IMG/VR virus record: IMGVR_UViG_3300045988_179274
Span: 1-43,506 of that record
DNA: 43,506 bases
Direction: 5' to 3' (one strand)
Origin: a virus
Position 1 is the first letter of the stretch. Every line of letters begins with the position of its first letter. Below, piece after piece: positions 3,731-43,228 of this stretch. The position numbers and the translations under genes were made by a program. Below the pieces are notes generated by a model. It did not search any database, was not told the origin of the DNA, and was given only the letters and a program-made list of their open reading frames with translations.

Positions 3731-4693
3731 TTAAGAATTCGGCTCCAAGGGCAGTGTCATTTGACCGCCAAATCGGTCGACAATCTTTTGTTCGTACTCT
3801 TCCCTGGTTTGAGATGATTCGGCCATCTCCAAAACTCTGCCAAGCTGGAAACGAAGCGCCTTGGTGCCGATGTCGCTCAGGAACTGGAACAACTTCTTGT
3901 TTGTGCCGGTATCGTGACTGTGTTTTTGTTCTCGTAAGAGCTTCAAAATTCTCCCGTTGCTTTTTGCCAACGGCGTGTATACATGAGCGATTGTGAGAGA
4001 CTTGAACTTCCAAGGCCATCCGCGCTCAGGCATAGGAATGTCATACAGTCGCGTCCATTCCTGATACAACTCTATTGGGAATTCGCTTTCGTATCGTTTT
4101 GCTTCCTCTTGAACAAAGCGTCGGAAAGCGATCAGGAATTGTTCTTTGGTAGAGTCAAGTCCAACAACCTTGTAAATAAGTTCCTGAATGCCTAGCTTTG
4201 CGCAAGCTCCAGTGATAATCGTTGCGGCTCGAATGAGGTGTTGTTGGTTTTTTGTGAGCTTCCCATCCTCGTTGGCCTTGATGATCGCTCTGCAAACGTC
4301 TATAAGGATCGTCACGTCGTAGCCGTAGACCTCAACTTCGGGGCCATTGAGGGAGCTCTGAAATACAAGGGGTTTTTGAACTTTTTTAGAAAGTTCCGGC
4401 CCAGCATAAGCGCTTATTGTTTTCCCGCTCATGAACCGAATGAAAGCGGTTCCGCCGCCCCCCATCAACCCCAACGCTACTGCCACTCCTCTCTGGCTTA
4501 TGACGGCGGTTCGATTATCGTCGTTCAGGACGTAGCAATCGACATCAACCCCCAAGTCCTTCTGAAGGTTTCCGAAATACAGCGCTTTCAGATGCCGATA
4601 TTGAGCTGCTTTTCTAGCGATTTCGCTTCTATCTTTCGGAGTCAGAGATTTTGCTCTTGCCTTTCCTCCTTTTGATTGTTTTGTGTCTTGCAT
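3731..4693 (-). CDS. P63C-domain phage protein
   Basis: N-terminal KGGKARAKSLTPKDRSEIARKAA, then CYVLNDDNRTAVISQRGVAVALG, which I recall as the P63C family pattern. ATG 4693 was chosen over the TTG at 4735. The region looks AT-richer by eye. Confidence 0.6.
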   Translation of the reverse strand: MQDTKQSKGGKARAKSLTPKDRSEIARKAAQYRHLKALYFGNLQKDLGVDVDCYVLNDDNRTAVISQRGVAVALGLMGGGGTAFIRFMSGKTISAYAGPELSKKVQKPLVFQSSLNGPEVEVYGYDVTILIDVCRAIIKANEDGKLTKNQQHLIRAATIITGACAKLGIQELIYKVVGLDSTKEQFLIAFRRFVQEEAKRYESEFPIELYQEWTRLYDIPMPERGWPWKFKSLTIAHVYTPLAKSNGRILKLLREQKHSHDTGTNKKLFQFLSDIGTKALRFQLGRVLEMAESSQTREEYEQKIVDRFGGQMTLPLEPNS

Positions 4694-4729
4694 ATAGATA
4701 CCACATGAATTAAATACATGTGCAAATTC

Positions 4730-4762
4730 TAGCAAGCATGCGAGAAAATATCTTGCTTGCTA
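4730..4762. promoter_or_regulatory. 9-bp perfect inverted repeat TAGCAAGCA-N15-TGCTTGCTA upstream of the P63C gene (operator-like)
   Basis: Read directly from the sequence. It lies in the AT-rich promoter region of the minus-strand gene. Confidence 0.45.
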
Positions 4763-4840
4763 AAAAATTGCCCAATATAAGCGCAAAGCCCGAGTGTTCC
4801 AGACTTGAAGAGAGTGCGAAAAAGCCGCCCGGGGGAGACC

Positions 4841-4878
4841 CAAAAAGAAAGAGCCCCTGACATGGTCAGGAGCCCTTT
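4841..4878 (-). terminator. Rho-independent terminator after hicB
   Basis: Minus-strand hairpin GGCUCCUGAC-CAUG-UCAGGGGCUC (imperfect) followed by UUUCUUUUU. Confidence 0.6.
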
Positions 4879-4905
4879 CAGTGTTCGTTTCGAAGGGACG
4901 ATGAG

Positions 4906-5340
4906 TTATGCAGAAGAAACAGAAACGTTCAGCTGGCGGTTCAAAGCATAAAGGGCTCGGGCAATAGTGTCAATTTTGGTCGCATGATGCAGATCGGTTA
5001 TGCGATTGACCTCTTGTCGAGAAACGCCCAATTTTTTGGCTAGGTCGACGGGGCGTGTCTTTGTTTCGACCATAGCATTTAAGAGCAGGACTTTAGCGAT
5101 GACGGAAGGAGGCAATTCTACGATTAGGTCTTCTGGGGAAGCGCTGGATGGGTTAGGGAACGGACGCTGCTCTTCGATGTAAAAATCGATGGCTGTAATA
5201 AGTGCGTCCAGCGCGTTAGCTTTAAGTTCCTCCATGGTGGCTGCTTCGGTCAAAGCTTCAGGGACATCCTTGAAGGAAGCAATAAATCCGCCATCGCCGT
5301 TCGGCTCAACTTGCGCGGGAAAGCGGAAAGCAGACGACAC
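4906..5340 (-). CDS. hicB: HicB antitoxin (N-terminal HicB fold + C-terminal Xre-type HTH)
   Basis: Colinear with my memory of E. coli HicB: FPAQVEP..GGFIASFKDVPEALTEA..., LLLNAM..., ITDLHHATKIDTIARAL. GTG 5340 with AAGGA upstream gives 144 aa. The alternative start at 5403/5406 lacks an SD. Confidence 0.85.
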   Translation of the reverse strand: MSSAFRFPAQVEPNGDGGFIASFKDVPEALTEAATMEELKANALDALITAIDFYIEEQRPFPNPSSASPEDLIVELPPSVIAKVLLLNAMVETKTRPVDLAKKLGVSRQEVNRITDLHHATKIDTIARALYALNRQLNVSVSSA

Positions 5341-5623: not shown

Positions 5624-5652
5624 ACTGTACACATATTTGTGCACGTTGTCAA
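5624..5652 (-). promoter_or_regulatory. Sigma70-type promoter of hicAB with an imperfect inverted repeat in the spacer
   Basis: Minus strand TTGACA-17 nt-TACAGT. The spacer contains GTGCACA-AATA-TGTGTAC, a candidate HicB operator. Confidence 0.65.
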
Positions 5653-5844
5653 CAAAAATGATTGCAAAAGTCTCGCTGGGGCGGCTTGGTGATTAGTTCA
5701 GAAGGAAGGCCGCCGCCTGCGCAGTACCCTACGCTTGCACACATCACAGACGGCGGCCGAAGGGGTTACGGGTGGGGAGGCTCTGGCAACTCTGCCCAGG
5801 CCGTGACACACCAGCCCTTATCGGTGCCATCCCAGTCGAGCAGC

Positions 5845-5866
5845 AAAAAGCCGCCCGAAGGCGGCT
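5845..5866 (-). terminator. Rho-independent terminator after the Rha/antirepressor gene
   Basis: Minus-strand RNA AGCCGCC-UUCG-GGCGGCU followed by UUUUU. Confidence 0.7.
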
Positions 5867-5877
5867 TACTGAGTTGC

Positions 5878-6639
5878 TTACGCAGCGTCAAACTTCAGAG
5901 TCGGCTCAAGCAGCCCGTCTTTAGCCAGCTTCTCGCAGATGTACTGCAAGCCCTTTGCGGTGAGGTGGCAGTACGGCTTTTCCTGCGGGTTCCCGTTCGA
6001 GTCGGTCCAGTGGGCGTAGCGCAGGACCGCGCGGCCGGCAAGGATGTGCTCCTGCTTTGGCGTGTCCGCGCTCGCGTAGAGAAACCCGATCTGCCGCATG
6101 TAGTCCTTGAACTTGCGGGGCGGGTAGCCGATGACCTTTGCCGCGTTGGTGATTGTCATCGACTCGTTGGCCGCCATGATCCTATCGAGGTAGCTGATCT
6201 TGGGCTCGTCTTCCTTGACCTTCAGCGCGAGGGTCTGATTCTTTTCGGCGAGGTCCGCGGCAAGTCGCAGTGCCTCGGGCAGGCTCTGGGGGATTTGCTG
6301 AGCGCGGCTCTTGGAGAGTTCGTCCCGGCACTGACGGAACGCCTGCACGAGACGGATCTTGAGCTTGCGGGCGATCTCGGTGTTTTTCAGGAAAGTGAAG
6401 AGCAGTGTTGTCTGATCTTCGTTGAGCCAGGCAACCTCGGTTGCCTTCGCAAACCCGCCCTGGGGGAGCGCTTTACCCTTCCGCGTTTCAAATGCGATAG
6501 GGCCAAACGCTTCAAAATCAGGGATGTACTTGCGGATTAGCTCGAGGACATTCTTATGCTGGACATTGACGCCATCGGCGATTGTGATAGAGTCGACGAC
6601 GGCCACGCCGTCATTGTTGATGGTGATGAGTTCTTGCAT
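5878..6639 (-). CDS. Rha-family phage regulatory protein with C-terminal KilAC/ANT antirepressor domain
   Basis: N-terminal ...NDGVAVVDSITIADGVNVQHKNVLELIRKY... (pRha-like). C-terminal ISYLDRIMAANESMTITNAAKVIG... (KilAC-like). Confidence 0.75.
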   Translation of the reverse strand: MQELITINNDGVAVVDSITIADGVNVQHKNVLELIRKYIPDFEAFGPIAFETRKGKALPQGGFAKATEVAWLNEDQTTLLFTFLKNTEIARKLKIRLVQAFRQCRDELSKSRAQQIPQSLPEALRLAADLAEKNQTLALKVKEDEPKISYLDRIMAANESMTITNAAKVIGYPPRKFKDYMRQIGFLYASADTPKQEHILAGRAVLRYAHWTDSNGNPQEKPYCHLTAKGLQYICEKLAKDGLLEPTLKFDAA

Positions 6640-29153: not shown

Positions 29154-32100
29154 GTGATGCAAGAGACGAATGAAGCTGTGGCGACAGACGGCGTCGATCA
29201 GATGCTGGTCCCCGAACAAAAAGCCCCTGAGCGCGAGTTTGACCCGTTCAAGTATCAGGAGCAAAAGCTGATCAGCCCTGCGGCAGACGCCATGGGCGGA
29301 AATGAAGCCAAGGCCGTACGCTCCCGACAGATTGCCAAGGATCTGGGCGTGTCCCGCACGGCCGTTGACCTGAACTACGACAACATGCAGACCTTGGCCG
29401 AGAAGGCCGACCGACAGCGTGCTCTGTCGCGTGCGCCGTCCGTGGCTCGGTGGGCGGTCAAAAACCCGTACGACGCCGCCGTTCTCAAAACCGACATCGG
29501 TTTCTTTGAGGGCATTGAAAACGAGATCGGCGAGATCGGCTCGTCGATCTCCCGCGGCTTTCAGGTTGGCGATATGGTGGCCGAGCAGGGCGCGGATTGG
29601 GCGCGTCTTGGCAACGCAAAGCCGAGTGAAGGTTTTCTCAAGGCCGACAAAGCGCGCGATCAGCGCATGCAGGATCTGACGGCCGGCGATGACGGCTTTT
29701 TCTTTTCGGCCTCGCAGGTCGTCGGCACGATGTACCGAGGGATGATTGAAGGCCTTGAGGGCGGCGCGGCAACGGCGGCCTTGGGCGGCGCGGCAATGGC
29801 TGCGGGCGCCATCCCCGTGGCGGGGCAGGCGCTTCTTGGCGCGACCGCCATCGGGTCTGCCGCTTACGGCACGTATCTGATCGAGGGCGGGCTCAACCTG
29901 AAGGAGCAGTACGACGAGGGGGTTGACTACGACAAGGCACGCACCATCGCCACGGGCGTTGGCTTTGCCAACGCCCTGACGGAAATGGTTGGCCTTCACC
30001 TGCTTGGCAAGGCGGCGGCACCAGCCCTGCGGCCTTTGGTCAAACGATTTTCTCCCAAGACTGTCGAGTCCCTCGAGAACATCACTACCATCGGCGCTCT
30101 GCGCGACGCGGCCAAGATGCTTGCCGTCGGCACCGGGCAGGAAGTGGTGACGGAAGTCATTCAGGAAGTTAACGCGATTGCAGGCGAAGAGCTTGGCAAA
30201 GCGTGGTCCGGAATCGGCAGCGACCTGACGGCGGAGGCTTTCGTCGACCGATTGCGCGATGTGGCCGTGCAGACGGCCAAGGCCATGGTGGTACTCGGCG
30301 GCATCTCGGCGGGCCCGGCAATCGTGGCAAACATGAACCGCGTCCGTGTGGCCAAGCAAAACGCCGAAGCGTTGGGACGCATCCTTGACAACTACAGCTC
30401 CTCCCAGGCGGCCAAGACCTCGCCCGAGGTGGCCGAGGAAGTGCTCGACTCGCAGGCCAAGGAGGCAGGTGCAGACACGGTGTGGATCGACGCGCAGAGC
30501 CTGCGACAGACCATGATCGAGCTCAATGTCTCGGTTGAAGAGCTGCAGACCGCGTTCCCCGAGATGGCCCGCCAGGTCAACGAGCAGGCCGCCGTGGGCG
30601 GTGACGTGAGCGTGCCCCTGGCCAAGTTCGCCTCCAAGCTCGGGAGCACGAACCTCGGCCTGGCCCTGCGACAGCACGTGCGATTCAATCAGGACGGGCT
30701 CTCAGAGTACGAGGCCGCGCAGGTTGAAACGGCATACAAGCAACTGAGAGCCGACGCCATCAAGGCTGCGCTTGACCCGAACGCCAAAGAGGCGGCGTTG
30801 CCGACAGAACAGCAGGCACGCCGCAAGGCGGACCGCAACGCCATCAATGCGTTTAAGGAGAAACTCAAACTCGACCTACAGGAGCATGGCTTCACGCCCT
30901 CTCAGTCCAAGGTGCAGGCTTCTTTTGCCGCAAAGGTTATTTCAGGTCTGATCGATCGAACGGGCATGACGGCCGAGCATGTGTTGGGCCTCGCTCCTCG
31001 TTTGATCGTTTCAGATCTCCAAGAATCGGGGCCGAAGCTGTTACAGGCTGTTGCCGAGCAAGGACCGCAAGTGCGACTCGATATGCTCAAGCGATCGCGA
31101 AAGCTTGATGAGCAAATCAAGAAGTGGAGGCAAGGAGATTCGACGGAGATTTTTAACCTCGGGGCTCCGTCTTGGGTGCTTCAGCTGTTTGGTACCAGCA
31201 AGCAAGAGAACGTCAAGATGTTTGGCCTGAACATGCTTCATGCAATCCTCAAGCCCGGTGAGCATCTCCATCGACAGAAAGGGAAACACGGCTTGACGGA
31301 CGATGAGATCCGCGGCATTTTGGCGGGTATTCAGAGGCCTATTGCCGTGTTTCGCTCAACGAATAAAGGGGCGAAGCCGGGAGAAGATAGCCTTGTGCTT
31401 TTAACCGAGCTCAAGCAGAACGGGAAAAACATTGTTGCCCCGATTTGGCTGACGACGCAGGTCAATGGTTCTATAGTCGTGGACAACCGGATTCCGACGG
31501 CGTACGCCAAAGCGAACATTGGGCAGTGGGTCGAAGACGGGCTTCTGTTGGGCTATGAAAAAGAAAAGGGGCTCAACCTCCTGTTGGAGAGCATGGGCTC
31601 CAATCGCCGGCAGCTCGGCACATCCAACAGGGGTAAACCCCTTATCCCGGGGGCAATTATATATGAAAATGACACCTCTGTTGGCGACCTATATCAAGTC
31701 GACAACGATGTTCGCGGCTCGTACTCGCCCGAGTCGCGCGCCATCACCCTGACCCCCGATGCGGACCTCTCGACTTTCTCGCACGAGATGGGGCACTGGT
31801 ACATGGCCACGCTCATCGATCTGGTGCGTACCGGACAGGCCAACGATTCGATCCGCGAGGACGTGGCGGCGCTCTTCAAGCAGTTCGGCGTCGCCGACGT
31901 CGCATCTTGGGACGCCCTTGGGTTCGAAGGTCAGCGCAAGTATCACGAGCAGTTTGCCTCGTGGGTTGAGCAGTACTTGGCCGAAGCGAAAGCACCCAAG
32001 GTCTTGAAGCGCTTCTTTATCAACCTGGGCAAGTTCATCCGCGACGTCTACCGCAATTTCACGGGCGGCGTCGTCGAGGCCACGCAGGAGCGCTACCGCG

Positions 32101-35100
32101 CCGAGGTCGGCGAAGAACTGCCGGCGCTCTCGGCCGAAGTGCGTCAGGTGCTCGACCGGATGGTCATGAGTGAAAAGGCCGTCAACGAGTACCAGGCCGC
32201 CGAGTCTTTGCATCCTCTCTTTGACACCAAGCCCGCGGACATGTCTGAGGCCGACTGGCTCGAGATGCAACGCGCCCGCGAAGAGGCCGACGAAGAGGGC
32301 ATGGCAGAGATCGTCCAGAGGCGTGCCAAAGACGACAAGTGGTACGACACTCAGCGAGGCAAGCTCCTTCGCGAGAAGAACAAGGAAGCCAAGGAGTACC
32401 GCGCCAAGGTGCGAGAGGGTGTAGAGCGCAGTCTCAACGGGCGCAAAGAGTTCATCGCGCTCGATATTCTGGCAAGTCGCGGCAAAGACTTTGCTTTGGA
32501 TAACTTCAAGTTCTCGGCCCAGAGCGTGCGTGAGCTTGGCTTTACGGAGCAGACCGTGGCCAAGCTACGCACAATGGGTGTGATTGAAGACAGTGGAATG
32601 ACTGTTGAGCAGGCCCGCGCAGCCCTTGAGCCCATGGCGCGGTTTTCCAGTGCGAAGGGGCTGATCAGGGGCCTTTTGTCGACCGAAAATCGGGAACAGA
32701 GGATTGAAGAGGAAACGACGCGACTGTGCCTGGCGCGGCGCTCGGACCTGTTCGACCCGCGTGAGATCGACCGCACGATCACGTCCGCCCTGCACAACGA
32801 GGCTCGGGCCCGCATGGTGGCCGCTGAGCTCAAGTACCTGACCAAAGACTTGACCAGCAACTCCAGAGTCTTGGCCGAGGCCGCACGCCGTGCCGCCCGC
32901 GACATCCTGGACCGCACGCCCGCCAAGGGTTTTACGCCCCGCGCGATGATGGCGCTCGAGTCGCGTGCTTCCCGAAAGGCTTACCAGGCCATCCGAAACG
33001 GCGACAAGGCCGCCGCCGGCGCATACAAGCGCCAGCAGTTGGTCTACCACGAGGCTGCCCGCCTGGCCGTCGAGACCGAGAAGAGCGCCAAGAAATTCAA
33101 GGAACTCAAGGCCTCGGTCTTTAAGAGCGACAAGGCTCTTTCTAAGACCTACGACGTCAATGTGATCGCCGTTGCCCGTGCGATTCTTGCAAACCGCGGA
33201 TACGGCAAGGTGCGTGCCGGCGAGATGGTGCCCGCGGAAACGTACCTGGATAAGGTCAAGAAGTACGACCCCGATCTTCTTGTGGGCCTTCAGGCTTACC
33301 TTGCCCGCCACCCCTACACGGGAGCCGACGTGCAGGCTGGTAGCGAGACCGCAGGACAGATGCTCTCCATGCTCGAAGACTTGCAGGCTCTGGTGAAGCT
33401 TGCCCGCGATCGGCGCACGGTTGAGCTTGACGGCAAGACGATGGACATCGATGACGCCGTCTCGGCTCTTGTCGCGAAGGCATGGGGCAAGGAATACAAG
33501 CCCTCGACAGGGCACGCTGTCACCAAGAAGGAAAAGCGCGTCAAGCGCTGGCTCACGGCCAAGGCATACCTGCGCCGCGTGGAGGATTGGTGCCGGACTA
33601 TGGACGGCGGCGAGGCCGGTCCATTTACCCGCTACATTTTCCGTCCCGTTGTAAATGCCGCGACCCGCTATCGCAACCGTAACGTTGAGATTCAAAAGCG
33701 CCTCGTGGATATTCTTGAGCTCCGCCGCCGGGCATGGGACAGCCTCACCGACATTGAGGCCCCCGAGATCGGCTACACGTTCTCGCGCAAGCAGGAACTC
33801 ATCGCAGCCATTCTGCACACGGGCAATGCCTCCAATAAGGAGAAGCTCCTGCTTGGCGGGCGTGGACCCGACGCCCCGTGGGCCGACATGATCGAATTGC
33901 CCGACGGCGAGCAGCGCATGGACACGTCCCGTTGGGACACGTTCATGGCGCGGTGCTTTGACGAGGGAATCATCACCAAGGAAGACATGGACGCTGTGCA
34001 GGCGATCTGGGACTTGCTCGAGCAGATCAAGCCCGACTCGCAGAGGGCCTTCCGCGAGTACTACGGCTTTTACTTCGAAGAGATCCCCGCCTCACCCGTG
34101 ATGACTCCCTGGGGGCAGTACCGCGGCGGCTACGTGCCTGCGGCGGCTGACATCGATCGTGTGGCGCAAAGCGATAAGCAAGCCGAGCAGGACCTCTTTG
34201 ACAACTCGAGCGAATTTCTCGACCAGATGCCGGTTACGCGCCCCGGCTTTACGCAGTCCCGCACCAAAGTGCACAGACCTCTTTCGCTTGACCTGAGCTT
34301 CTTGTCTTCACACGTGCAGAAGGCCACAAAGTTCGCGATGATGGCACCGACCATCAAGCAGGTGCAGCGCATCCTGCACACGAAGGAGCTCAAGAACAGG
34401 CTCAACGAGATCGACCCGCAGCTGCTCGGCGAAATGCTCGAGCCGTGGCTGCGGCGTTCTGCCACGCAGTCTGTGAGCACCCCCGCGAACTGGTTTGACA
34501 AAAAGCTCGATGCGCTGCGCGGCTTGGCGGGTATGGCTATTATGTCCGGCAACATCATCAATGCGCTACAGCAGTTTACGGGCTTGTCTGTGGCAATCAG
34601 TCAAGTGGGCGCCAAGCCTATGGTTAGGGCGCTTGCCGCTTACACGGCGCACCCCAAGGGCTACATTTCCACCGTCAAGGCCATGTCGCCTTACATGAAG
34701 GCGCGCCTTGAGAACTTTGAGTTTGAGTTCCAGGAGCGCATCCAAAAGATCGCCCAGGTCGAAAAGCCCACGACGCTCGAAGCAATGCGCGGCTGGACGA
34801 TGCGGCACGCTTACTTCCTTCAGATGTGGATCCAGATGGTGGTGGATACGCCCACGTGGATGGCCGGCTATGAAAAAGCTCTGGCCGCTGGCAAGACCGA
34901 CGCCGAAGCAGTACAGGAAGCCGATGCAGTTGTGCGCAGAACGCAATCGGCCTTTGAGGCCGAATCGCTGGCGCGCGTCGAGACGGGCTCGCCCCTGGCT
35001 CGCACTCTCTTGGTCTTCTATAACTACTTCAACATGCAGGCCAACTTGCTCGGGACGTCGTGGGCCCTGAACCGCGAGGCCGGCCACTACGGCAAGTTCA

Positions 35101-35642
35101 TGATCGATTTCGCGCTTATCCTGGCTATCCCGTCGATCCTCTCGCAAGTACTGATCGAGTCCTTCATGGGCTTTGACACTGGCGACGACGATGACTGGGA
35201 CGCGTACGACGCAGCCCGCCTGCTCATCAGTCCGGTGGTCAAAAACGTGGTGGCGCTCGTGCCTTTTGCCGGCCAAATCGTCAACGCGGCCGCTACGGAA
35301 CTCTCCAAGGCCATGGGCGACAAGGAAAACTTGTTCCAAGTCGTCTTCGCGCCGAACTCCTACAATAGCCGCCTTGTGAGCATCCCAGCCGAGTCGCTGA
35401 TACAGAACTCTCTCAAGGCCGTGGGGCAACTGTCGAAGGCCGCCACTGGCGAAGAGGTTAATGCTCGCAGCACGATGAGAAACACGCTCGACGCGCTGAC
35501 CCTTGTGACAGGCATTCCTTTTGCCGCAGCCAAGCGTCCCCTCAGCTATGCCGCCGGCGTTGCCGCAGGGCAGATCGAACCCGACTCGGCTGCCAACGCC
35601 GTGCGCGGGGCGATTGCGGGCAAAGAGGTCAAGTCCGAGTAG
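29154..35642 (+). CDS. Giant internal virion / ejection protein (gp16 position), polyvalent, with HExxH metallopeptidase motif
   Basis: 2162-aa uninterrupted ORF. HEMGH at 31782..31796. Hydrophobic Gly/Ala-rich segments lie near both ends. GTG 29154 or ATG 29157 could be the start. Confidence 0.75.
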   Translation: MMQETNEAVATDGVDQMLVPEQKAPEREFDPFKYQEQKLISPAADAMGGNEAKAVRSRQIAKDLGVSRTAVDLNYDNMQTLAEKADRQRALSRAPSVARWAVKNPYDAAVLKTDIGFFEGIENEIGEIGSSISRGFQVGDMVAEQGADWARLGNAKPSEGFLKADKARDQRMQDLTAGDDGFFFSASQVVGTMYRGMIEGLEGGAATAALGGAAMAAGAIPVAGQALLGATAIGSAAYGTYLIEGGLNLKEQYDEGVDYDKARTIATGVGFANALTEMVGLHLLGKAAAPALRPLVKRFSPKTVESLENITTIGALRDAAKMLAVGTGQEVVTEVIQEVNAIAGEELGKAWSGIGSDLTAEAFVDRLRDVAVQTAKAMVVLGGISAGPAIVANMNRVRVAKQNAEALGRILDNYSSSQAAKTSPEVAEEVLDSQAKEAGADTVWIDAQSLRQTMIELNVSVEELQTAFPEMARQVNEQAAVGGDVSVPLAKFASKLGSTNLGLALRQHVRFNQDGLSEYEAAQVETAYKQLRADAIKAALDPNAKEAALPTEQQARRKADRNAINAFKEKLKLDLQEHGFTPSQSKVQASFAAKVISGLIDRTGMTAEHVLGLAPRLIVSDLQESGPKLLQAVAEQGPQVRLDMLKRSRKLDEQIKKWRQGDSTEIFNLGAPSWVLQLFGTSKQENVKMFGLNMLHAILKPGEHLHRQKGKHGLTDDEIRGILAGIQRPIAVFRSTNKGAKPGEDSLVLLTELKQNGKNIVAPIWLTTQVNGSIVVDNRIPTAYAKANIGQWVEDGLLLGYEKEKGLNLLLESMGSNRRQLGTSNRGKPLIPGAIIYENDTSVGDLYQVDNDVRGSYSPESRAITLTPDADLSTFSHEMGHWYMATLIDLVRTGQANDSIREDVAALFKQFGVADVASWDALGFEGQRKYHEQFASWVEQYLAEAKAPKVLKRFFINLGKFIRDVYRNFTGGVVEATQERYRAEVGEELPALSAEVRQVLDRMVMSEKAVNEYQAAESLHPLFDTKPADMSEADWLEMQRAREEADEEGMAEIVQRRAKDDKWYDTQRGKLLREKNKEAKEYRAKVREGVERSLNGRKEFIALDILASRGKDFALDNFKFSAQSVRELGFTEQTVAKLRTMGVIEDSGMTVEQARAALEPMARFSSAKGLIRGLLSTENREQRIEEETTRLCLARRSDLFDPREIDRTITSALHNEARARMVAAELKYLTKDLTSNSRVLAEAARRAARDILDRTPAKGFTPRAMMALESRASRKAYQAIRNGDKAAAGAYKRQQLVYHEAARLAVETEKSAKKFKELKASVFKSDKALSKTYDVNVIAVARAILANRGYGKVRAGEMVPAETYLDKVKKYDPDLLVGLQAYLARHPYTGADVQAGSETAGQMLSMLEDLQALVKLARDRRTVELDGKTMDIDDAVSALVAKAWGKEYKPSTGHAVTKKEKRVKRWLTAKAYLRRVEDWCRTMDGGEAGPFTRYIFRPVVNAATRYRNRNVEIQKRLVDILELRRRAWDSLTDIEAPEIGYTFSRKQELIAAILHTGNASNKEKLLLGGRGPDAPWADMIELPDGEQRMDTSRWDTFMARCFDEGIITKEDMDAVQAIWDLLEQIKPDSQRAFREYYGFYFEEIPASPVMTPWGQYRGGYVPAAADIDRVAQSDKQAEQDLFDNSSEFLDQMPVTRPGFTQSRTKVHRPLSLDLSFLSSHVQKATKFAMMAPTIKQVQRILHTKELKNRLNEIDPQLLGEMLEPWLRRSATQSVSTPANWFDKKLDALRGLAGMAIMSGNIINALQQFTGLSVAISQVGAKPMVRALAAYTAHPKGYISTVKAMSPYMKARLENFEFEFQERIQKIAQVEKPTTLEAMRGWTMRHAYFLQMWIQMVVDTPTWMAGYEKALAAGKTDAEAVQEADAVVRRTQSAFEAESLARVETGSPLARTLLVFYNYFNMQANLLGTSWALNREAGHYGKFMIDFALILAIPSILSQVLIESFMGFDTGDDDDWDAYDAARLLISPVVKNVVALVPFAGQIVNAAATELSKAMGDKENLFQVVFAPNSYNSRLVSIPAESLIQNSLKAVGQLSKAATGEEVNARSTMRNTLDALTLVTGIPFAAAKRPLSYAAGVAAGQIEPDSAANAVRGAIAGKEVKSE

Positions 35643-38588: not shown

Positions 38589-39554
38589 ATGACCAAGGCT
38601 GCATACATTGGCGTCAACGGTAAAGCGCGAAAAGTTAAGAAGGGCTACGTAGGCGTCAACGGCAAAGCGCGAAAGATCAAGAAGGCCTATGTCGGTGTCG
38701 GCGGCGTTGCCAGACCGTGTTGGGGCGGCGGGGAGCTGAGCTATTACGGCACTATTACGCCGTTGTCTCAAGGTAGATATGCTCACGCGGCTACCACGGT
38801 TGGAGGCTATGCCCTGTTTGGGGGTGGATACAGAGAAAGAAGTGTAGACGCATATAACACATCCCTAACGAGAAGTACACCTACAGCGTTGTCTAATAGA
38901 CCGCGGAGCCTTGCGGCTCCAACTGTTGGGAACTATGCCCTTTTCGGGGGAGGGTATGACATCGATTTAAACAACTCATTTCTCAGCACTGTAGACGCCT
39001 ACGACTCGTCTCTGACGAGAAGTACGCCCTCGTCGTTGTCTATAGGTAGGAGTAACTTAGCGGCTACAACTGTTGGGGGCTATGCCCTTTTCGGGGGTGG
39101 GAATGACAACCGCGGCAATAGCATAAACGTAGACGCCTACGACTCGTCTCTGACGAGAAGTACGCCCACAGCGTTGTCTCAAGCTAGGGGTTACTTAGCG
39201 GCTACAACTGTTGGGGGCTATGCCCTTTTCGGGGGTGGGTCCGGCAACGCCATCGTAGACGCCTACGACTCGTCTCTGACGAGAAGTACGCCCACAGCGT
39301 TGTCTCAAGCTAGGGGTTACTTAGCGGCTACAACTGTTGGGAACTTTGCTCTGTTTGGAGGCGGAGCCCCTAGCAGCCTCGGCAGCAACGTTGTAGACGC
39401 CTACGACGATTCTCTGATGAGAAGCACACCCACGGCGTTGTCTCACGATAGCCTCAGCTTAGCGGCTACAACCGTTGGGAACTATGCCTTATTTGGCGGC
39501 GGAATCCTTGACGGCATTGTCAGCATCGATGTGGACGCCTATACGGTAGTTTAA
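38589..39554 (+). CDS. Kelch-type beta-propeller protein (six blades), probable receptor-binding protein
   Basis: Six repeats of ...VDAYDSSLTRSTPTALSQARGYLAATTVGGYALFGGG... The N-terminus has AYIGVNGKARKVKKGYVGVNGKARKIKKAYVGV repeats. Confidence 0.75.
   Translation: MTKAAYIGVNGKARKVKKGYVGVNGKARKIKKAYVGVGGVARPCWGGGELSYYGTITPLSQGRYAHAATTVGGYALFGGGYRERSVDAYNTSLTRSTPTALSNRPRSLAAPTVGNYALFGGGYDIDLNNSFLSTVDAYDSSLTRSTPSSLSIGRSNLAATTVGGYALFGGGNDNRGNSINVDAYDSSLTRSTPTALSQARGYLAATTVGGYALFGGGSGNAIVDAYDSSLTRSTPTALSQARGYLAATTVGNFALFGGGAPSSLGSNVVDAYDDSLMRSTPTALSHDSLSLAATTVGNYALFGGGILDGIVSIDVDAYTVV
38991..39341 (+). repeat. In-gene tandem DNA repeats (blade units); two 87-nt copies are identical
   Basis: 39129..39215 equals 39255..39341, with a period of 126 nt. 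A diverged copy starts at 38991. Confidence 0.85.
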
Positions 39555-40578: not shown

Positions 40579-40611
40579 ATCACACAAAGGGCGCCTGAAT
40601 CCCGGCGCAAG

Positions 40612-40650
40612 AAAATGCCCCGCTTACCTCAACAGCAAGCGGGGCATTTT
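40612..40650. terminator. Bidirectional rho-independent terminator between convergent operons
   Basis: AAAATGCCCCGCTT-loop-AAGCGGGGCATTTT: a perfect 12-bp stem flanked by A and T runs. Confidence 0.8.
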
Positions 40651-40667
40651 CGCTTTCGCAAGGCCGC

Positions 40668-40853
40668 CTATTCCTTGCACACAGCCTTGATGGTGGCTAC
40701 TGCGCACCACGCTTTTTCGAGCGTGCGAACGTCCTCACTACTGAGTCCGCCGCCATCGCGGGCTTCGTCGCACACCTTGTCGATCTTTTCGAGAAGACAG
40801 TGCATGGACTGTTCCGCGCGGGCTTTCATCAGTTCCTTCATTTCCATGGTCAT
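40668..40853 (-). CDS. Hypothetical small protein (third gene of Com-associated cassette)
   Basis: 61-aa helical ORF with four Cys. 4-nt overlap with the upstream gene. Confidence 0.5.
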   Translation of the reverse strand: MTMEMKELMKARAEQSMHCLLEKIDKVCDEARDGGGLSSEDVRTLEKAWCAVATIKAVCKE

Positions 40854-41185
40854 TCTCCATGTCTGTTCATGATTTCTTTGAGCGCGTCCAGGTCTCCCTT
40901 GTCAGGCTTATACGGCCCGATGGAGAAGGGATGCGCTTCAAGATTCTTTGAGGCTTCGGCGTACAGCAAGTCCACGTCGATGCGGTTTTGCTCGTCCACC
41001 GCCCCCAAAGACTTCAGAAGCGGTAGATAGCCTTCGATCATCGTCGGGGCTCGCTGAGCGACGAGCCCCGAGATGATGCCGACGGTGAAGGGCAGAGAAC
41101 CGCCTTGCTTTCCTGCGGCGGGGATGAGAACTTGCTGTGCAAATTCTGCGATCACCGCAGGCAGATTCCCGATCGGCATCTTCAT
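40850..41185 (-). CDS. Hypothetical protein (second gene of Com-associated cassette)
   Basis: 111-aa ORF. Its start lies 2 nt after the upstream stop. Confidence 0.55.
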   Translation of the reverse strand: MKMPIGNLPAVIAEFAQQVLIPAAGKQGGSLPFTVGIISGLVAQRAPTMIEGYLPLLKSLGAVDEQNRIDVDLLYAEASKNLEAHPFSIGPYKPDKGDLDALKEIMNRHGE

Positions 41186-41187
41186 GG

Positions 41188-41811
41188 CTAGCTCCGCTGA
41201 ACCTTGACGGTGCCGCTAATCGGCTGAGTAGCCGGTGCGGTGTCGGTCGCCGTCGGAGCCGTCCACGAGTTGTACCGCGGCATGACGGGCGGACAGATGA
41301 CGGACTGCGGGACGATCGTCTGAGTGATGCCGTTCACCGTGTTCTGCAACGCGGCAATGGCCGCAGAGTTCTGACTGATGCCGCAGTTGCAGGCCTGCGC
41401 AACGGAGTCGATGCGACCGCCCAGTTCACTGCGCACGAGCTTCTCGCGCAGGTCGGCGATTTCAGCGTTCTTGGACACGTTGGTTTCAAGAACCGCGATG
41501 CGCTCACGATTCGCCGCGGCCTCCGCGGAGAGCGGGCGGATGAAGCCCATCAGCTCATCGCGAAGCACTTTATTTTCAGCGCGCGAAGCAACGTAGACTT
41601 CGGAATCCTTGTTGTCGGAATACTTTTCTGCGCGAAGGTTGGCGTTCTCGGCCATCAGGGCATTGAGCTGATTGCAGTTGCCGCCGCCAAGGATGCCGCC
41701 GAGAATGCCGCCGTTGCCGTTATTGGCGGAGCCGAGGAAACCGAGGGAGCCCAGTACGAGGGCGGGGATGCCTACGCCGTTGGCGAGGCCTTTTGTGGCA
41801 AATTCACCCAT
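41188..41811 (-). CDS. Hypothetical protein with Gly-rich hydrophobic N-terminus and coiled-coil-like centre (first gene of Com-associated cassette)
   Basis: 207-aa ORF. GIPALVLGSLGFLGSANNGNGGILGGILGGGNC, then a heptad-like region. The start codon is buried in a hairpin. Confidence 0.6.
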   Translation of the reverse strand: MGEFATKGLANGVGIPALVLGSLGFLGSANNGNGGILGGILGGGNCNQLNALMAENANLRAEKYSDNKDSEVYVASRAENKVLRDELMGFIRPLSAEAAANRERIAVLETNVSKNAEIADLREKLVRSELGGRIDSVAQACNCGISQNSAAIAALQNTVNGITQTIVPQSVICPPVMPRYNSWTAPTATDTAPATQPISGTVKVQRS

Positions 41812-41831
41812 AGCAAACTCCTTTTGCTATG
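41809..41831 (-). promoter_or_regulatory. Translation-initiation hairpin: perfect 9-bp stem with SD in the loop and AUG in the 3' arm
   Basis: Minus-strand RNA CAUAGCAAA-AGGAG-UUUGCUAUG. The AUG is the start of 41188..41811. Confidence 0.7.
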
Positions 41832-41868
41832 GAACTCGAGGTTCTCTGGATTGCGCGCTCGACCGGCG

Positions 41869-42075
41869 CTAAGAAGTTGGCTCGTTGGCCTTATTTGAGG
41901 CAGAGACCGAACGGCTCTGCGGGATGACCCTATTGTATGACGAAAGGTCTAGAACATCAAGCGCTTTGCACTTCGGACACTTGATGCACAAAACCCCACT
42001 AGCCGGGCGGGGCGAAGCAATGTCGAAAAGACGACGCCCACAGCAAGGGCATCTAACAGTTACAGCTACCTCCAT
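41869..42075 (-). CDS. com: Mu Com-like zinc-ribbon translational regulator
   Basis: VRCPCCGRRLFDIA...VLCIKCPKCKALDV matches the Com pattern RCxxC...(I/L)KCPxC. AGGAGAG is the SD. Confidence 0.7.
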   Translation of the reverse strand: MEVAVTVRCPCCGRRLFDIASPRPASGVLCIKCPKCKALDVLDLSSYNRVIPQSRSVSASNKANEPTS

Positions 42076-42162
42076 TTTTCTCTCCTATTAGAGAACGAAA
42101 ATCGGACAAGACGGCATTGAGCGTTGTTTTGTCGCCGCATCCGTAAGCTAAAACAAGATTCG

Positions 42163-42573
42163 TCATTTCAAAATTTCCGTCAGTGCGTCGTGGTTTTTGG
42201 CGCATCGCTGATAGAGTCGGCCGCACTCTGAACCAGAGTCAGCCAGTCTTTGAACCAAGTCTTCCAGTCGGGCAACTCGCTTTCTAAGAGCGTCTGCGGA
42301 ATCTCCGGAGGAGGCGCGGTTACCGTCCGAGTGGCGCATCCGGGCGCGAGCACGATCAAGCTCAGCGCGCAGATCGTTGTACTCAGCCTGAGCCAAGTTG
42401 ATCGTATCGGTTGCTTTCGAAAGTCCTTCAGCATTTTTTCTCTCCGCCGCCCGCAGTGCTTCAGACTGCGCCGCTTCCATGAGGGCAATTTTTCGGTCGT
42501 AGTGCGAAGAGGCCAGCCAGACCCCCGCGAAGAAGACCAGGCCAGCCGCAACCGCATAAACGTAGTCTTTCAT
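42163..42573 (-). CDS. i-spanin (Rz-like)
   Basis: ATG 42573 overlaps the endolysin stop (ATGA). N-terminal TM YAVAAGLVFFAGVWLA, then a coiled-coil periplasmic domain. It contains the embedded o-spanin frame. Confidence 0.75.
   Translation of the reverse strand: MKDYVYAVAAGLVFFAGVWLASSHYDRKIALMEAAQSEALRAAERKNAEGLSKATDTINLAQAEYNDLRAELDRARARMRHSDGNRASSGDSADALRKRVARLEDLVQRLADSGSECGRLYQRCAKNHDALTEILK
42180..42434 (-). CDS. o-spanin (Rz1-like lipoprotein) embedded in the +1 frame of the i-spanin gene
   Basis: ...ICALSLIVLAPGC ATRTVTAPPPEIP...: a signal-like segment, a lipobox-like APGC, then a Pro-rich mature part. The start is uncertain. Confidence 0.6.
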   Translation of the reverse strand: MLKDFRKQPIRSTWLRLSTTICALSLIVLAPGCATRTVTAPPPEIPQTLLESELPDWKTWFKDWLTLVQSAADSISDAPKTTTH

Positions 42574-42944
42574 TTGCGTCGATAATCCCAACGAGCGCGG
42601 TGCCCACGCACGTCTACATGAACGAACGAATCGTACAGTCCGACGCCGCCTTCTTTATTGAGTTCCAGACACAGGTCCTGGAGCTCGGGGATCAGGCGCG
42701 GATCGTCAGGTCGAATGTCAGCCGCCATACCTTTCGTGTGATAGCTGTTAGCCACAGCGCCGGTGATCGTCGCGTTGTATTCGGGGCTTCGATAGCCCGA
42801 GTTAACAATGATCGGCTTGCCCCACGCGCGGCGGATGCGATTGAGTAAATTCAGCAATTCATCAGTGACAACGTGCGGGAAGGGAGACCTGTTCGGGTCT
42901 TTTGGACTCTGCAACTCCTTTTCGTCAAAAAAACCGTATTTCAT
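42570..42944 (-). CDS. Endolysin, peptidase M15 (DUF882/M15A-like) family
   Basis: SGYRSPEYNATITGAVANSYHTKGMAADI and ...SFVHVDVR carry the H..D..H zinc ligands typical of M15 peptidases. Confidence 0.85.
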   Translation of the reverse strand: MKYGFFDEKELQSPKDPNRSPFPHVVTDELLNLLNRIRRAWGKPIIVNSGYRSPEYNATITGAVANSYHTKGMAADIRPDDPRLIPELQDLCLELNKEGGVGLYDSFVHVDVRGHRARWDYRRK

Positions 42945-43228
42945 CGGGCACCTCTCTCCAAAAAACCTTTCAAGATGCTCACACCATCTTTTCCCATCAT
43001 GCCGCCCAATCCTGCCAGCGCTCCCGCGGCCTCATCAGACAGGCCGTAAGAGTGCGCCGCCATACAGATCAGAAAGCCAATGAACCCCGAAAGGGTCACT
43101 ACCCCAAAGAATTCCAGCCAAAGAAAAGGCTTGGCTTTACCAACCGAGTTCAAGTACATCAGACACTGAGCCAAGGCACCCACCGCAAACGAAAAGAGGT
43201 ATCGGAAATATTCGTTGTAGTCCTGCAT
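42941..43228 (-). CDS. Holin
   Basis: 95 aa with at least two TM helices (FSFAVGALAQCLMYL; FFGVVTLSGFIGFLICMAA). It lies immediately upstream of the endolysin and overlaps it. Confidence 0.7.
   Translation of the reverse strand: MQDYNEYFRYLFSFAVGALAQCLMYLNSVGKAKPFLWLEFFGVVTLSGFIGFLICMAAHSYGLSDEAAGALAGLGGMMGKDGVSILKGFLERGAR

Follow-up and report, generated by a model that had tools for sequence, protein, structure and literature searches.

A likely Com-type translational switch ahead of a three-gene cassette in the lysis operon of a temperate podovirus-like phage genome

The closest known counterpart of the locus considered here is the com-mom switch of phage Mu, in which the small zinc-ribbon protein Com acts on an RNA hairpin beside a translation-inhibition structure (TIS) covering the start of the mom gene. 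[quoted passage not shown] Com homologues of FluMu, Pnm1 and Pseudomonas phage B3 have DNA adenine methyltransferases in the mom position, and the FluMu cargo gene hin1523 is reported to have putative Com sites at its 5' end (PMC3299994). Here we describe a locus in IMG/VR virus record IMGVR_UViG_3300045988_179274, whose 43,506 nt we refer to as the window; the loci of relatives of its cassette are labelled L001, L002 and so forth. A com-like gene and a start-codon hairpin precede three genes, designated A, B and C, and we consider it likely that this is a Com/TIS translational switch of the Mu com-mom type carrying a different cargo. The components of the locus are as follows.

41869..42075, minus strand: com, a 68-aa CCCC zinc-ribbon protein (phrog_6417, Mu Com alignment, family profile)
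41855..41869, minus strand: HP1 hairpin (minimum-free-energy fold, leader alignment)
41831..41846, minus strand: HP2, a predicted bipartite Com-binding motif (match to the published Com SELEX motif, leader alignment)
41808..41832, minus strand: TIS, a 10-bp hairpin (folding, hairpin scan, covariation)
41188..41811, minus strand: cargo A, 207 aa (alignment, AlphaFold model, hydropathy)
40850..41185, minus strand: cargo B, 111 aa (predicted structure)
40668..40853, minus strand: cargo C, a small acidic protein of 61 aa (open reading frame [ORF] list)

The start codon of A lies 57 nt past the com stop codon, a 2-nt gap separates the A stop from the B start, and B and C overlap by 4 nt (ATGA); all of these coordinates and spacings, first reported in an earlier reading of the DNA made from its sequence alone (the original prediction), hold on re-check.

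The 68-aa protein (MEVAVTVRCPCCGRRLFD...LCIKCPKCKALDV) has the features of the Com family, namely small size (about 40-75 aa) and an N-terminal CxxC...CxxC zinc ribbon with the pattern RCxxCxxxLF / IxCxxCK. It matches phrog_6417 ('translational regulator') at E 1.8e-8 and is 34% identical to Mu Com over 32 aa by BLASTP, with C9, C12, C33 and C36 in register with the four cysteines of Mu Com and invariant in 12 distinct variants at homologous loci. These variants are 31-58% identical to the window copy; a profile built from them aligns with Mu Com over the whole finger (hhalign probability 96.7%, E 4.4e-10) and retrieves from databases proteins named by JGI and NCBI 'phage FluMu protein Com' or 'Com family', including PF10122 proteins. 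Eleven of the 12 variants match phrog_6417, six match phrog_13819 ('gpCom control of modification') and five match PF10122 (Zn_ribbon_Com; best E 8.6e-6). The phrog_6417 match, the aligned cysteines and the hhalign result thus bear out the Mu Com-like zinc ribbon of the original prediction, and judged by these sequence comparisons the protein is a homologue of phage Mu Com.

Several Com relatives depart from this pattern. Those of L007 and L009 (about 5755-5967) and L008 (about 5645-5942) have CxC for CxxC in both zinc knuckles (MEIQVRCRCGKRLFD...ILCRCKT), and in L008 the com frame is broken by a frameshift; decay of these copies, or a different mode of metal binding, is possible, though the leader is intact. 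Com-family proteins also occur in other contexts (L100-L102, 2501-2662; L097, 2992-3162), one of the genes lying between a gene for a 565-aa protein and an XRE-type regulator, near a PemK toxin, and another being in a [Clostridium] innocuum phage with a terminator directly 3' of it. Com relatives may have uses other than the mom-type arrangement.

The hairpin at the start of A had been described as a 9-bp stem (CAUAGCAAA-AGGAG-UUUGCUAUG) with the Shine-Dalgarno sequence as its loop and the AUG in the stem. It is present in the minimum-free-energy fold with this arrangement and is one pair longer than claimed, extending to 10 perfect pairs (CCAUAGCAAA-AGGAG-UUUGCUAUGG, 41808-41832). The loop consists of the Shine-Dalgarno sequence (41818-41822); the AUG (41809-41811) is part of the 3' arm and has a pairing probability of 1.0. 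In the window only four distinct perfect hairpins have a stem of 9 bp or more and a loop of 3-8 nt, and Markov simulations give 1.9 +/- 2.0 per window; because such hairpins are so few, one placed exactly on the Shine-Dalgarno sequence and AUG is not expected by chance. Termination was considered as a role for this hairpin and ruled out, since no U-run lies 3' of it.

Immediately 5' of the TIS is HP2, GAGAACC-UC-GAGUUCC (GAGAACCUCGAGUUCC; 41846-41831), and the final base of its motif is the first base of the TIS hairpin. A scan of both strands of the 43.5-kb window for the SELEX motif returns HP2 as its single match, with 0.33 expected anywhere. HP2 has a weak stem (GAAC/GUUC) and the loop CUCGA, and a 19-mer spanning the site (AGAGAACCUCGAGUUCCAU) is identical at 16 of 19 positions, by manual count, to the designed Com-binding RNA II (AGAGAACCCGGAGUUCCCU, PMC6483171). 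HP1 (GCGC-CGGUCGA-GCGC, 41869-41855) appears in the minimum-free-energy fold, begins with the G of the com stop codon, and is built like the native Mu Com site. We predict from these likenesses that HP2, and probably HP1, are Com-binding sites.

Relatives of A were found by scans at 19 viral, 6 genome and 57 metagenome loci, to which loci fetched by exact protein were added. The three-gene cassette is kept far outside the lineage of the window, and the com gene is confined to one clade, whose A proteins share at least about 47% identity with window A. Among 52 distinct leaders, 20 with com and 32 without, the AUG is paired with upstream sequence (p > 0.8) in 18 of the 20 and 4 of the 32 (Fisher 2.6e-8), and a CC-N2-3-G[A/U]G motif is present in 19 and 1 respectively (Fisher 5e-12), the counts including related sequences such that these p-values overstate independence. 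The TIS stems comprise at least seven different sequences that keep their register, each burying the AUG or the Shine-Dalgarno sequence. Their arms (5' / 3') include the following.

Window: CCAUAGCAAA / UUUGCUAUGG
L035: GCAUAGCA / UGCUAUG
L049: CCAUGAC / GUCAUGG
L054: CCAUGACAA / UUGUCAUGG
L012: CCAUGAUUUC / GAAUGUCAUGG
L062: CCCGUGUUUUCC / GGAAAUCAUGGG
L103: CUCCUUA / UAAGGAG (anti-Shine-Dalgarno pairing)

The TIS and HP2 of L103 are mutually exclusive, since the former's 5' arm overlaps the latter's 3' arm.

Covariation was assessed in a 19-leader alignment with a three-hairpin structure, using slid partners and 500 shuffles as controls. In this structure 87% of cells are paired, versus at most 47% with slid partners, and two-sided changes involve 7 pairs and 21 cells, versus at most 4 pairs and 5 cells in the slid controls; none of the 500 shuffles reaches the observed values, and RNAalifold agrees. 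All cells (100%) of HP1 are paired, with one CG to UA double change, and 92% of those of HP2; at its pair 47-56, 14 leaders have AU and 5 have GC. A covariance model from the same alignment has one match in the window (E 2e-24) and finds the leader in L103-L105 (E about 4e-12), which lie outside the training set and have the gene order holin, M15 endolysin, spanin-sized ORF, com (PF10122-positive), A, B, C. The model has no match in Mu and marginal matches in com-less loci (E 0.19-0.59). Synteny of com, hairpin and cargo, compensatory changes in the stem, and conservation of the hairpin at homologous loci had been put forward in the original prediction as checks on the idea; the first two were found among the 52 leaders and in the 19-leader alignment, and the hairpin is kept in most com-positive loci.

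Two further leaders are of note for the history of the arrangement. A com-less cassette (L013, 5792-5877; L067, 2292-2377), whose A is 41% identical to that of the window, has a hairpin CACACAUGA-GAGGAGAAAA-UCAUGGGUG that buries the AUG and is matched by the model at E 0.19; sequestration of the A start codon may be older than its association with Com. In L034 (2307-2500) HP1, an HP2-like site, the TIS and the last com codons are kept and the com gene is missing, the cassette being divergent from a holin-endolysin operon; either this copy is switched off for good or it relies on a com gene located elsewhere. Elsewhere com, leader and A-B-C are seen together after spanins, between holin and lysozyme, after an integrase at a prophage end beside host ABC-transporter genes, and between an oppositely oriented acetyltransferase and tail genes, and since they travel together through these several contexts we regard them as a portable module.

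Given homology of the protein and identical anatomy of the leader, a Mu-type mechanism is the most likely one, with RNA binding, hairpin opening and activation by Com all predicted from sequence. The com, A, B and C genes would share a single late transcript, to which read-through from the holin, endolysin and spanin genes probably contributes as well. On the naked mRNA the TIS would hold the A Shine-Dalgarno sequence in its loop and the AUG in its stem, and no ribosome could start. Once accumulated, Com would bind the short hairpin or hairpins with CC-N2-4-GAG directly 5' of the TIS (HP2, probably also HP1), shifting the RNA such that the TIS opens or is out-competed and A is translated, with B and C following by coupling across the 2-nt gap and the ATGA overlap. 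The outcome would be delayed, thresholded and leak-proof production of the cargo, which we suggest is gated because its premature synthesis would be harmful. The claim that a Com-like activator and a hairpin gate a non-Mom cargo is supported overall, by homology, the unique motif, co-occurrence, compensatory changes and held-out covariance matches.

The locus occupies the distal part of a single tightly packed minus-strand operon (40608-43228) running from a holin through to a terminator. The remaining features of the operon are listed below.

42941..43228, minus strand: holin, first gene of the late lysis operon (PF16083 Phage_holin_3_3, E 2.9e-9; phrog_6384, holin)
42570..42944, minus strand: endolysin, M15 peptidase (PF08291, E 7e-16; phrog_894, endolysin, E 4e-28)
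42163..42591, minus strand: i-spanin-like protein with an N-terminal transmembrane segment and coiled coil (architecture; Kyte-Doolittle 19-residue maximum 1.81)
42180-42557, minus strand: candidate o-spanin, a +1-frame ORF embedded in the i-spanin-like ORF (lipoprotein-like signal and Pro-rich mature part)
40608..40650, both strands: bidirectional intrinsic terminator (stem and U-run on each strand)

The PHROG matches of the i-spanin-like ORF 42163-42591 are Rz-like and weak (E 0.03-1), and the lipoprotein-like signal of the embedded ORF 42180-42557 reads ...ALSLIVLAPGC; from the architecture and these weak matches we infer that the two form an embedded Rz/Rz1-type pair, and the signal sequence points to a diderm host. 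The terminator has a 15-18 bp stem followed by a U-run on either strand (-39.8 kcal/mol, z -4.9, on the minus strand; -31.1, z -4.5, on the plus strand) and closes both the lysis/cassette operon and the converging tail-fibre/XkdX genes. The PF16083 and PF08291 matches and the terminator fold agree with the earlier placement of the cassette at the distal end of a holin-endolysin-spanin operon that stops at a bidirectional terminator. A sigma-70 promoter scan gave no candidate above chance, and the com promoter was not located by it.

Protein A begins with a Gly-rich, weakly hydrophobic segment (residues 9-45; MGEFATKG...) whose Kyte-Doolittle 19-residue maximum is 1.25-1.72 across the family, a borderline membrane span; of the Gly-rich hydrophobic N-terminus originally described the first attribute stands and the second is weak. 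Residues 47-166 (120 residues) form one continuous helix in the AlphaFold model and are followed by a C-terminal motif at residues 172-186, ICPPVMPRYNSWTAP (ICPxVMPRYNSWxAP), and a Pro/Thr/Ala-rich tail. The motif is invariant or nearly so in ten diverse aligned homologues, with one variant in L104. Clustering at 90% gives the family 793 relatives, and clustering at 50% identity gives 459 clusters; no domain fusions are present among 150 listed representatives of 73-259 aa. Homologues are encoded on contigs assigned to Clostridia, Ruminococcaceae and Alphaproteobacteria and in Bacteroides phages, being annotated as hypothetical in the cultured Bacteroides phages DAC16-23. Protein B is modelled as a domain of helices and small strands (predicted local distance difference test [pLDDT] 91, predicted template-modelling score [pTM] 0.80) with no strongly hydrophobic segment; its model has no fold match in the PDB by Foldseek (best E 2.9), and its matches in BFVD are all uncharacterised phage proteins, two of them from crAss-like phages. 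Protein C has no hydrophobic segment and no family match.

Searches of A, B and C against Pfam, PHROGs, NCBIfam and PADLOC, distant homologues included, gave nothing meaningful. None of the window proteins A, B, C and Com matches PADLOC-DB, and distant homologues give weak isolated PADLOC matches, the best at E 2.4e-4 to PDC-M37A. Profile searches of the PDB yielded nothing beyond noise: A aligns with coiled coils and, without significance (E 0.06-0.2), with influenza HA2, which it resembles in having a Gly-rich N-terminus plus a coiled coil and where the matches are probably compositional; B aligns with a designed HEEH mini-protein and C has no match, and the single-helix model of A finds no useful match in Foldseek. 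The literature search found no paper with the motif MPRYNSW and none describing Com in lysis cassettes. The three proteins thus remain as unrecognised as the original prediction had them across Pfam, PHROGs, NCBIfam, PADLOC and PDB folds, and its statement that the cargo is not Mom-like is borne out by the finding of no DNA-modification family or fold.

Two roles for the cargo were rejected. A Mom or other DNA-modification enzyme does not fit, there being no enzyme-like domain in a set in which A is a single long helix and B is without a PDB fold match. Nor do A-B-C fit a spanin (Rz/Rz1), since B and C have neither a lipoprotein signal nor a strongly hydrophobic segment, a separate spanin-like pair is encoded at 42163-42591, and homologues occur on Clostridia and Ruminococcaceae contigs. 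Spanins belong to diderm hosts only, and Clostridia and Ruminococcaceae are normally without an outer membrane.

In some cassettes additional small genes separate A from B or follow C, the orders being A, 129 aa, B, C, 64 aa in L023 and L074 and A, 174 aa, B in L072, and for this reason A and B are taken as the core of the cassette, with variable partners. In L014 a radical-SAM enzyme (4042-5325; PF04055 plus Fer4_12) is encoded two genes 5' of a com-less cassette in an AT-rich phage; this association is not general, and the idea of peptide modification arose from the invariant Cys-Pro motif of A. Gene B contains another perfect 10-bp hairpin (41044-41071, minus strand; UCGGGGCUCG-ucgcucag-CGAGCCCCGA), which is kept in close relatives, in some by G-U pairs alone, and is absent where B has diverged (L001, L012).

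The gene neighbourhood is the clearest clue to what the cargo does. The cassette lies directly beside lysis genes of unrelated types, including holin_3_3 with M15, holin_4_1 with Phage_lysozyme (here the cassette is flanked by the two), a holin_2-type holin with GH108, an r1t holin with a SpoIID-type protein, Amidase_3, and a Phage_lysozyme that has a small transmembrane coiled-coil ORF as its neighbour. This context favours a lysis- or envelope-linked role over DNA modification. We propose tentatively, at somewhat short of even odds, that the cargo is an envelope-acting accessory of the lysis module that would be harmful if made early. A would be tethered to the membrane by its weakly hydrophobic Gly-rich N-terminus and would present, on a coiled-coil stalk of roughly 18 nm (assuming a straight helix), a near-invariant C-terminal peptide whose target would be conserved across bacterial phyla; B and C would be cytoplasmic partners. 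A holin-specific partner for A is disfavoured because the C-terminal motif persists beside unrelated holin families. A broader proposal, which we hold with less confidence still, is that A-B-C is a hitherto unrecognised lysis-module accessory system found across bacterial phyla, with A membrane-tethered and possibly releasable, and that one proteobacterial phage lineage captured the Mu Com/TIS switch so that this harmful function is held off until late. If so, this would be the first Com control outside Mu-like phages and DNA modification, the ICPxVMPRYNSWxAP peptide of A would engage a universally conserved envelope component, and B and C would be its cytoplasmic partners.

To the relatedness of the leaders noted above must be added several points that weigh against the Com/TIS switch. 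HP2 is too weak to appear in the minimum-free-energy fold, the window Com has no PF10122 match listed at E <= 1 and falls below the Pfam threshold (that of L001 scores 19.5 bits, the cut-off being 22.9), the folding energy of the whole leader is unexceptional (z = -0.95), the L034 leader has no local com gene, and in several variants the com stop codon lies within HP2 or the TIS, where ribosome coupling could contribute. The sub-threshold PF10122 score is a failed strict test and not evidence against homology, and the signal in the leader is the local hairpin and its conservation, not overall stability. It is very improbable that hairpin and motif are accidental, or that they act in mRNA stability or processing and are unconnected in regulation with the zinc-ribbon gene: the whole leader is indeed no more stable than shuffles (z about -1) and a search of it against Rfam gave no family, but the covariation, the register-specific pairing, the strict co-occurrence with com, the extension of the covariance model to held-out loci and the single occurrence of the motif in the window, at the predicted place, all speak against this, and the loss of the hairpin from most com-positive loci that it would entail is not seen. 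Translational coupling alone, in which ribosomes translating com melt the structures and re-initiate at A while the zinc ribbon acts elsewhere, for example in DNA binding or autoregulation, is improbable to a lesser degree. The com stop UAG falls inside the TIS 5' arm in L001-L003 and the com stop inside HP2 in L007, L031, L032 and L049, and in Mu the start of mom lies within the com ORF; however, in the window and many relatives the com stop is at least 57 nt 5' of the AUG (up to 114 nt in L012), too far away for a terminating ribosome to open the TIS, such that coupling alone is unlikely in the window. The CC-N2-3-GAG motif is moreover kept in non-coding spacers and matches the experimentally selected Com target.

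As to the cargo, the proposal of an envelope-acting lysis accessory is drawn from gene neighbourhood and composition alone, and it is weakened by this and by exceptions to the lysis association, namely a position between capsid and connector genes in L019 and others at prophage ends, the usual sites of morons. The most serious competitor, though we think it unlikely, is that the cassette is a moron (superinfection exclusion, defence or lysogenic conversion) that benefits the lysogen and merely occupies a usual moron site. Such a role would suit a self-contained mobile module found at prophage ends beside integrase and host genes (L032, L038) or at a prophage terminus after an amidase (L022), and the membrane-type N-terminus of A is typical of exclusion proteins; yet there is no PADLOC match, the cassette lies between holin and endolysin in L035 and directly upstream of holin and endolysin on the same strand in L072 and L080, and Com-type gating is a late-gene device in Mu (PMC3299994). 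That A is instead a virion component such as a head or tail fibre of coiled-coil type, that B and C serve as its assembly chaperones and that Com only sets stoichiometry would accord with a long helix ending in a conserved anchor-like peptide, with the placing of the cassette in L019 and L026, where it has the major capsid gene on one side and head-tail connector genes on the other, and with its position after a tail-fibre/XkdX block in L036. We give this little credence, as a Gly-rich hydrophobic N-terminus is atypical of a fibre, the cassette has no fixed position relative to structural genes, and it is found in genomes of podo-, sipho- and myo-type whose capsids and tails are unrelated, which speaks against a specific docking site on the virion.

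The window itself is a temperate podovirus-like genome of a gut phage, encoding an integrase, a CI-like repressor, a large terminase, a T7-type portal, a major capsid protein and tail proteins; Bbp19 and GP7 domains are present in its relatives. The DNA of the locus has no blastn match among 50,697 phage records. Two further features lie on the plus strand. A single 2162-aa ORF (29154-35642) occupies the tail/injection region of the 43.5-kb genome, and 3' of the tail-fibre genes is a 321-aa protein (38589-39554) with about six tandem repeats (…VDAYDSSLTRSTPTALS…AATTVGGYALFGGG…), whose sole match is phrog_19111 (unknown function).

Com/TIS control has hitherto been treated as a peculiarity of Mu-like phages and DNA-modification genes. 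The 12 Com variants and at least seven TIS solutions found here form a natural panel of co-varying Com/RNA pairs that could help to decode Com-RNA recognition. The switch also flags a large three-gene cassette as something that phages must keep off until late, and offers it, in testable form, as a possible missing step of phage lysis or of interaction with the envelope, on the basis of its adjacency to lysis genes whatever the holin or endolysin type and of a 15-residue motif of A conserved across phyla. The cassette spans a cultured Bacteroides phage, contigs assigned to Clostridia and Alphaproteobacteria, and diderm-type lysis modules.

Compared with parts of known lysis cassettes, the cargo shows likenesses of architecture. 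T4 RI/RIII antiholins and signal-anchor-release (SAR) proteins belong to such cassettes, and by analogy A resembles them in its weakly hydrophobic Gly/Ala/Thr-rich N-terminal anchor, its small non-hydrophobic partners and its linkage to lysis genes, features that would suit a role in timing or a factor set free when the holin triggers; no sequence or fold similarity to these proteins was found. A also recalls Rz/Rz1 in its N-terminal hydrophobic segment, its long coiled coil with Cys and its place at the end of the lysis operon, but B lacks a lipoprotein signal and the phage already has a spanin-like pair.

The likeness to Mu com-mom is closer. In both, a small CCCC zinc-ribbon gene lies immediately upstream of its target, one or more short hairpins, with CC-N-GAG in or next to the loop, lie directly 5' of the hairpin in which the start signals of the following gene are sequestered, com touches or overlaps its own target with its 3' end, and the whole is part of a late operon at the end of the genome. 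Unlike in Mu, the cargo is neither Mom nor a recognisable enzyme, the phage is temperate and podovirus-like with an integrase and a CI-like repressor and is not transposable, A starts with AUG (GUG in Mu mom), two Com-type hairpins stand in tandem, and the C-terminal tail of Com differs. As in FluMu, Pnm1 and B3, Com would gate a cargo other than Mom, whereas theirs are DNA-modification genes in Mu-like prophages and the one described here is a lysis-linked, three-protein cargo with a membrane-type coiled-coil protein. The Com/TIS kind of switch and the placement of Com ahead of non-Mom methyltransferases were thus already known (PMC3299994); new, in that we found no paper describing them, are the non-Mu-like lineage, the non-DNA-modification cargo, the tandem-site leader and the modular mobility of the cassette.

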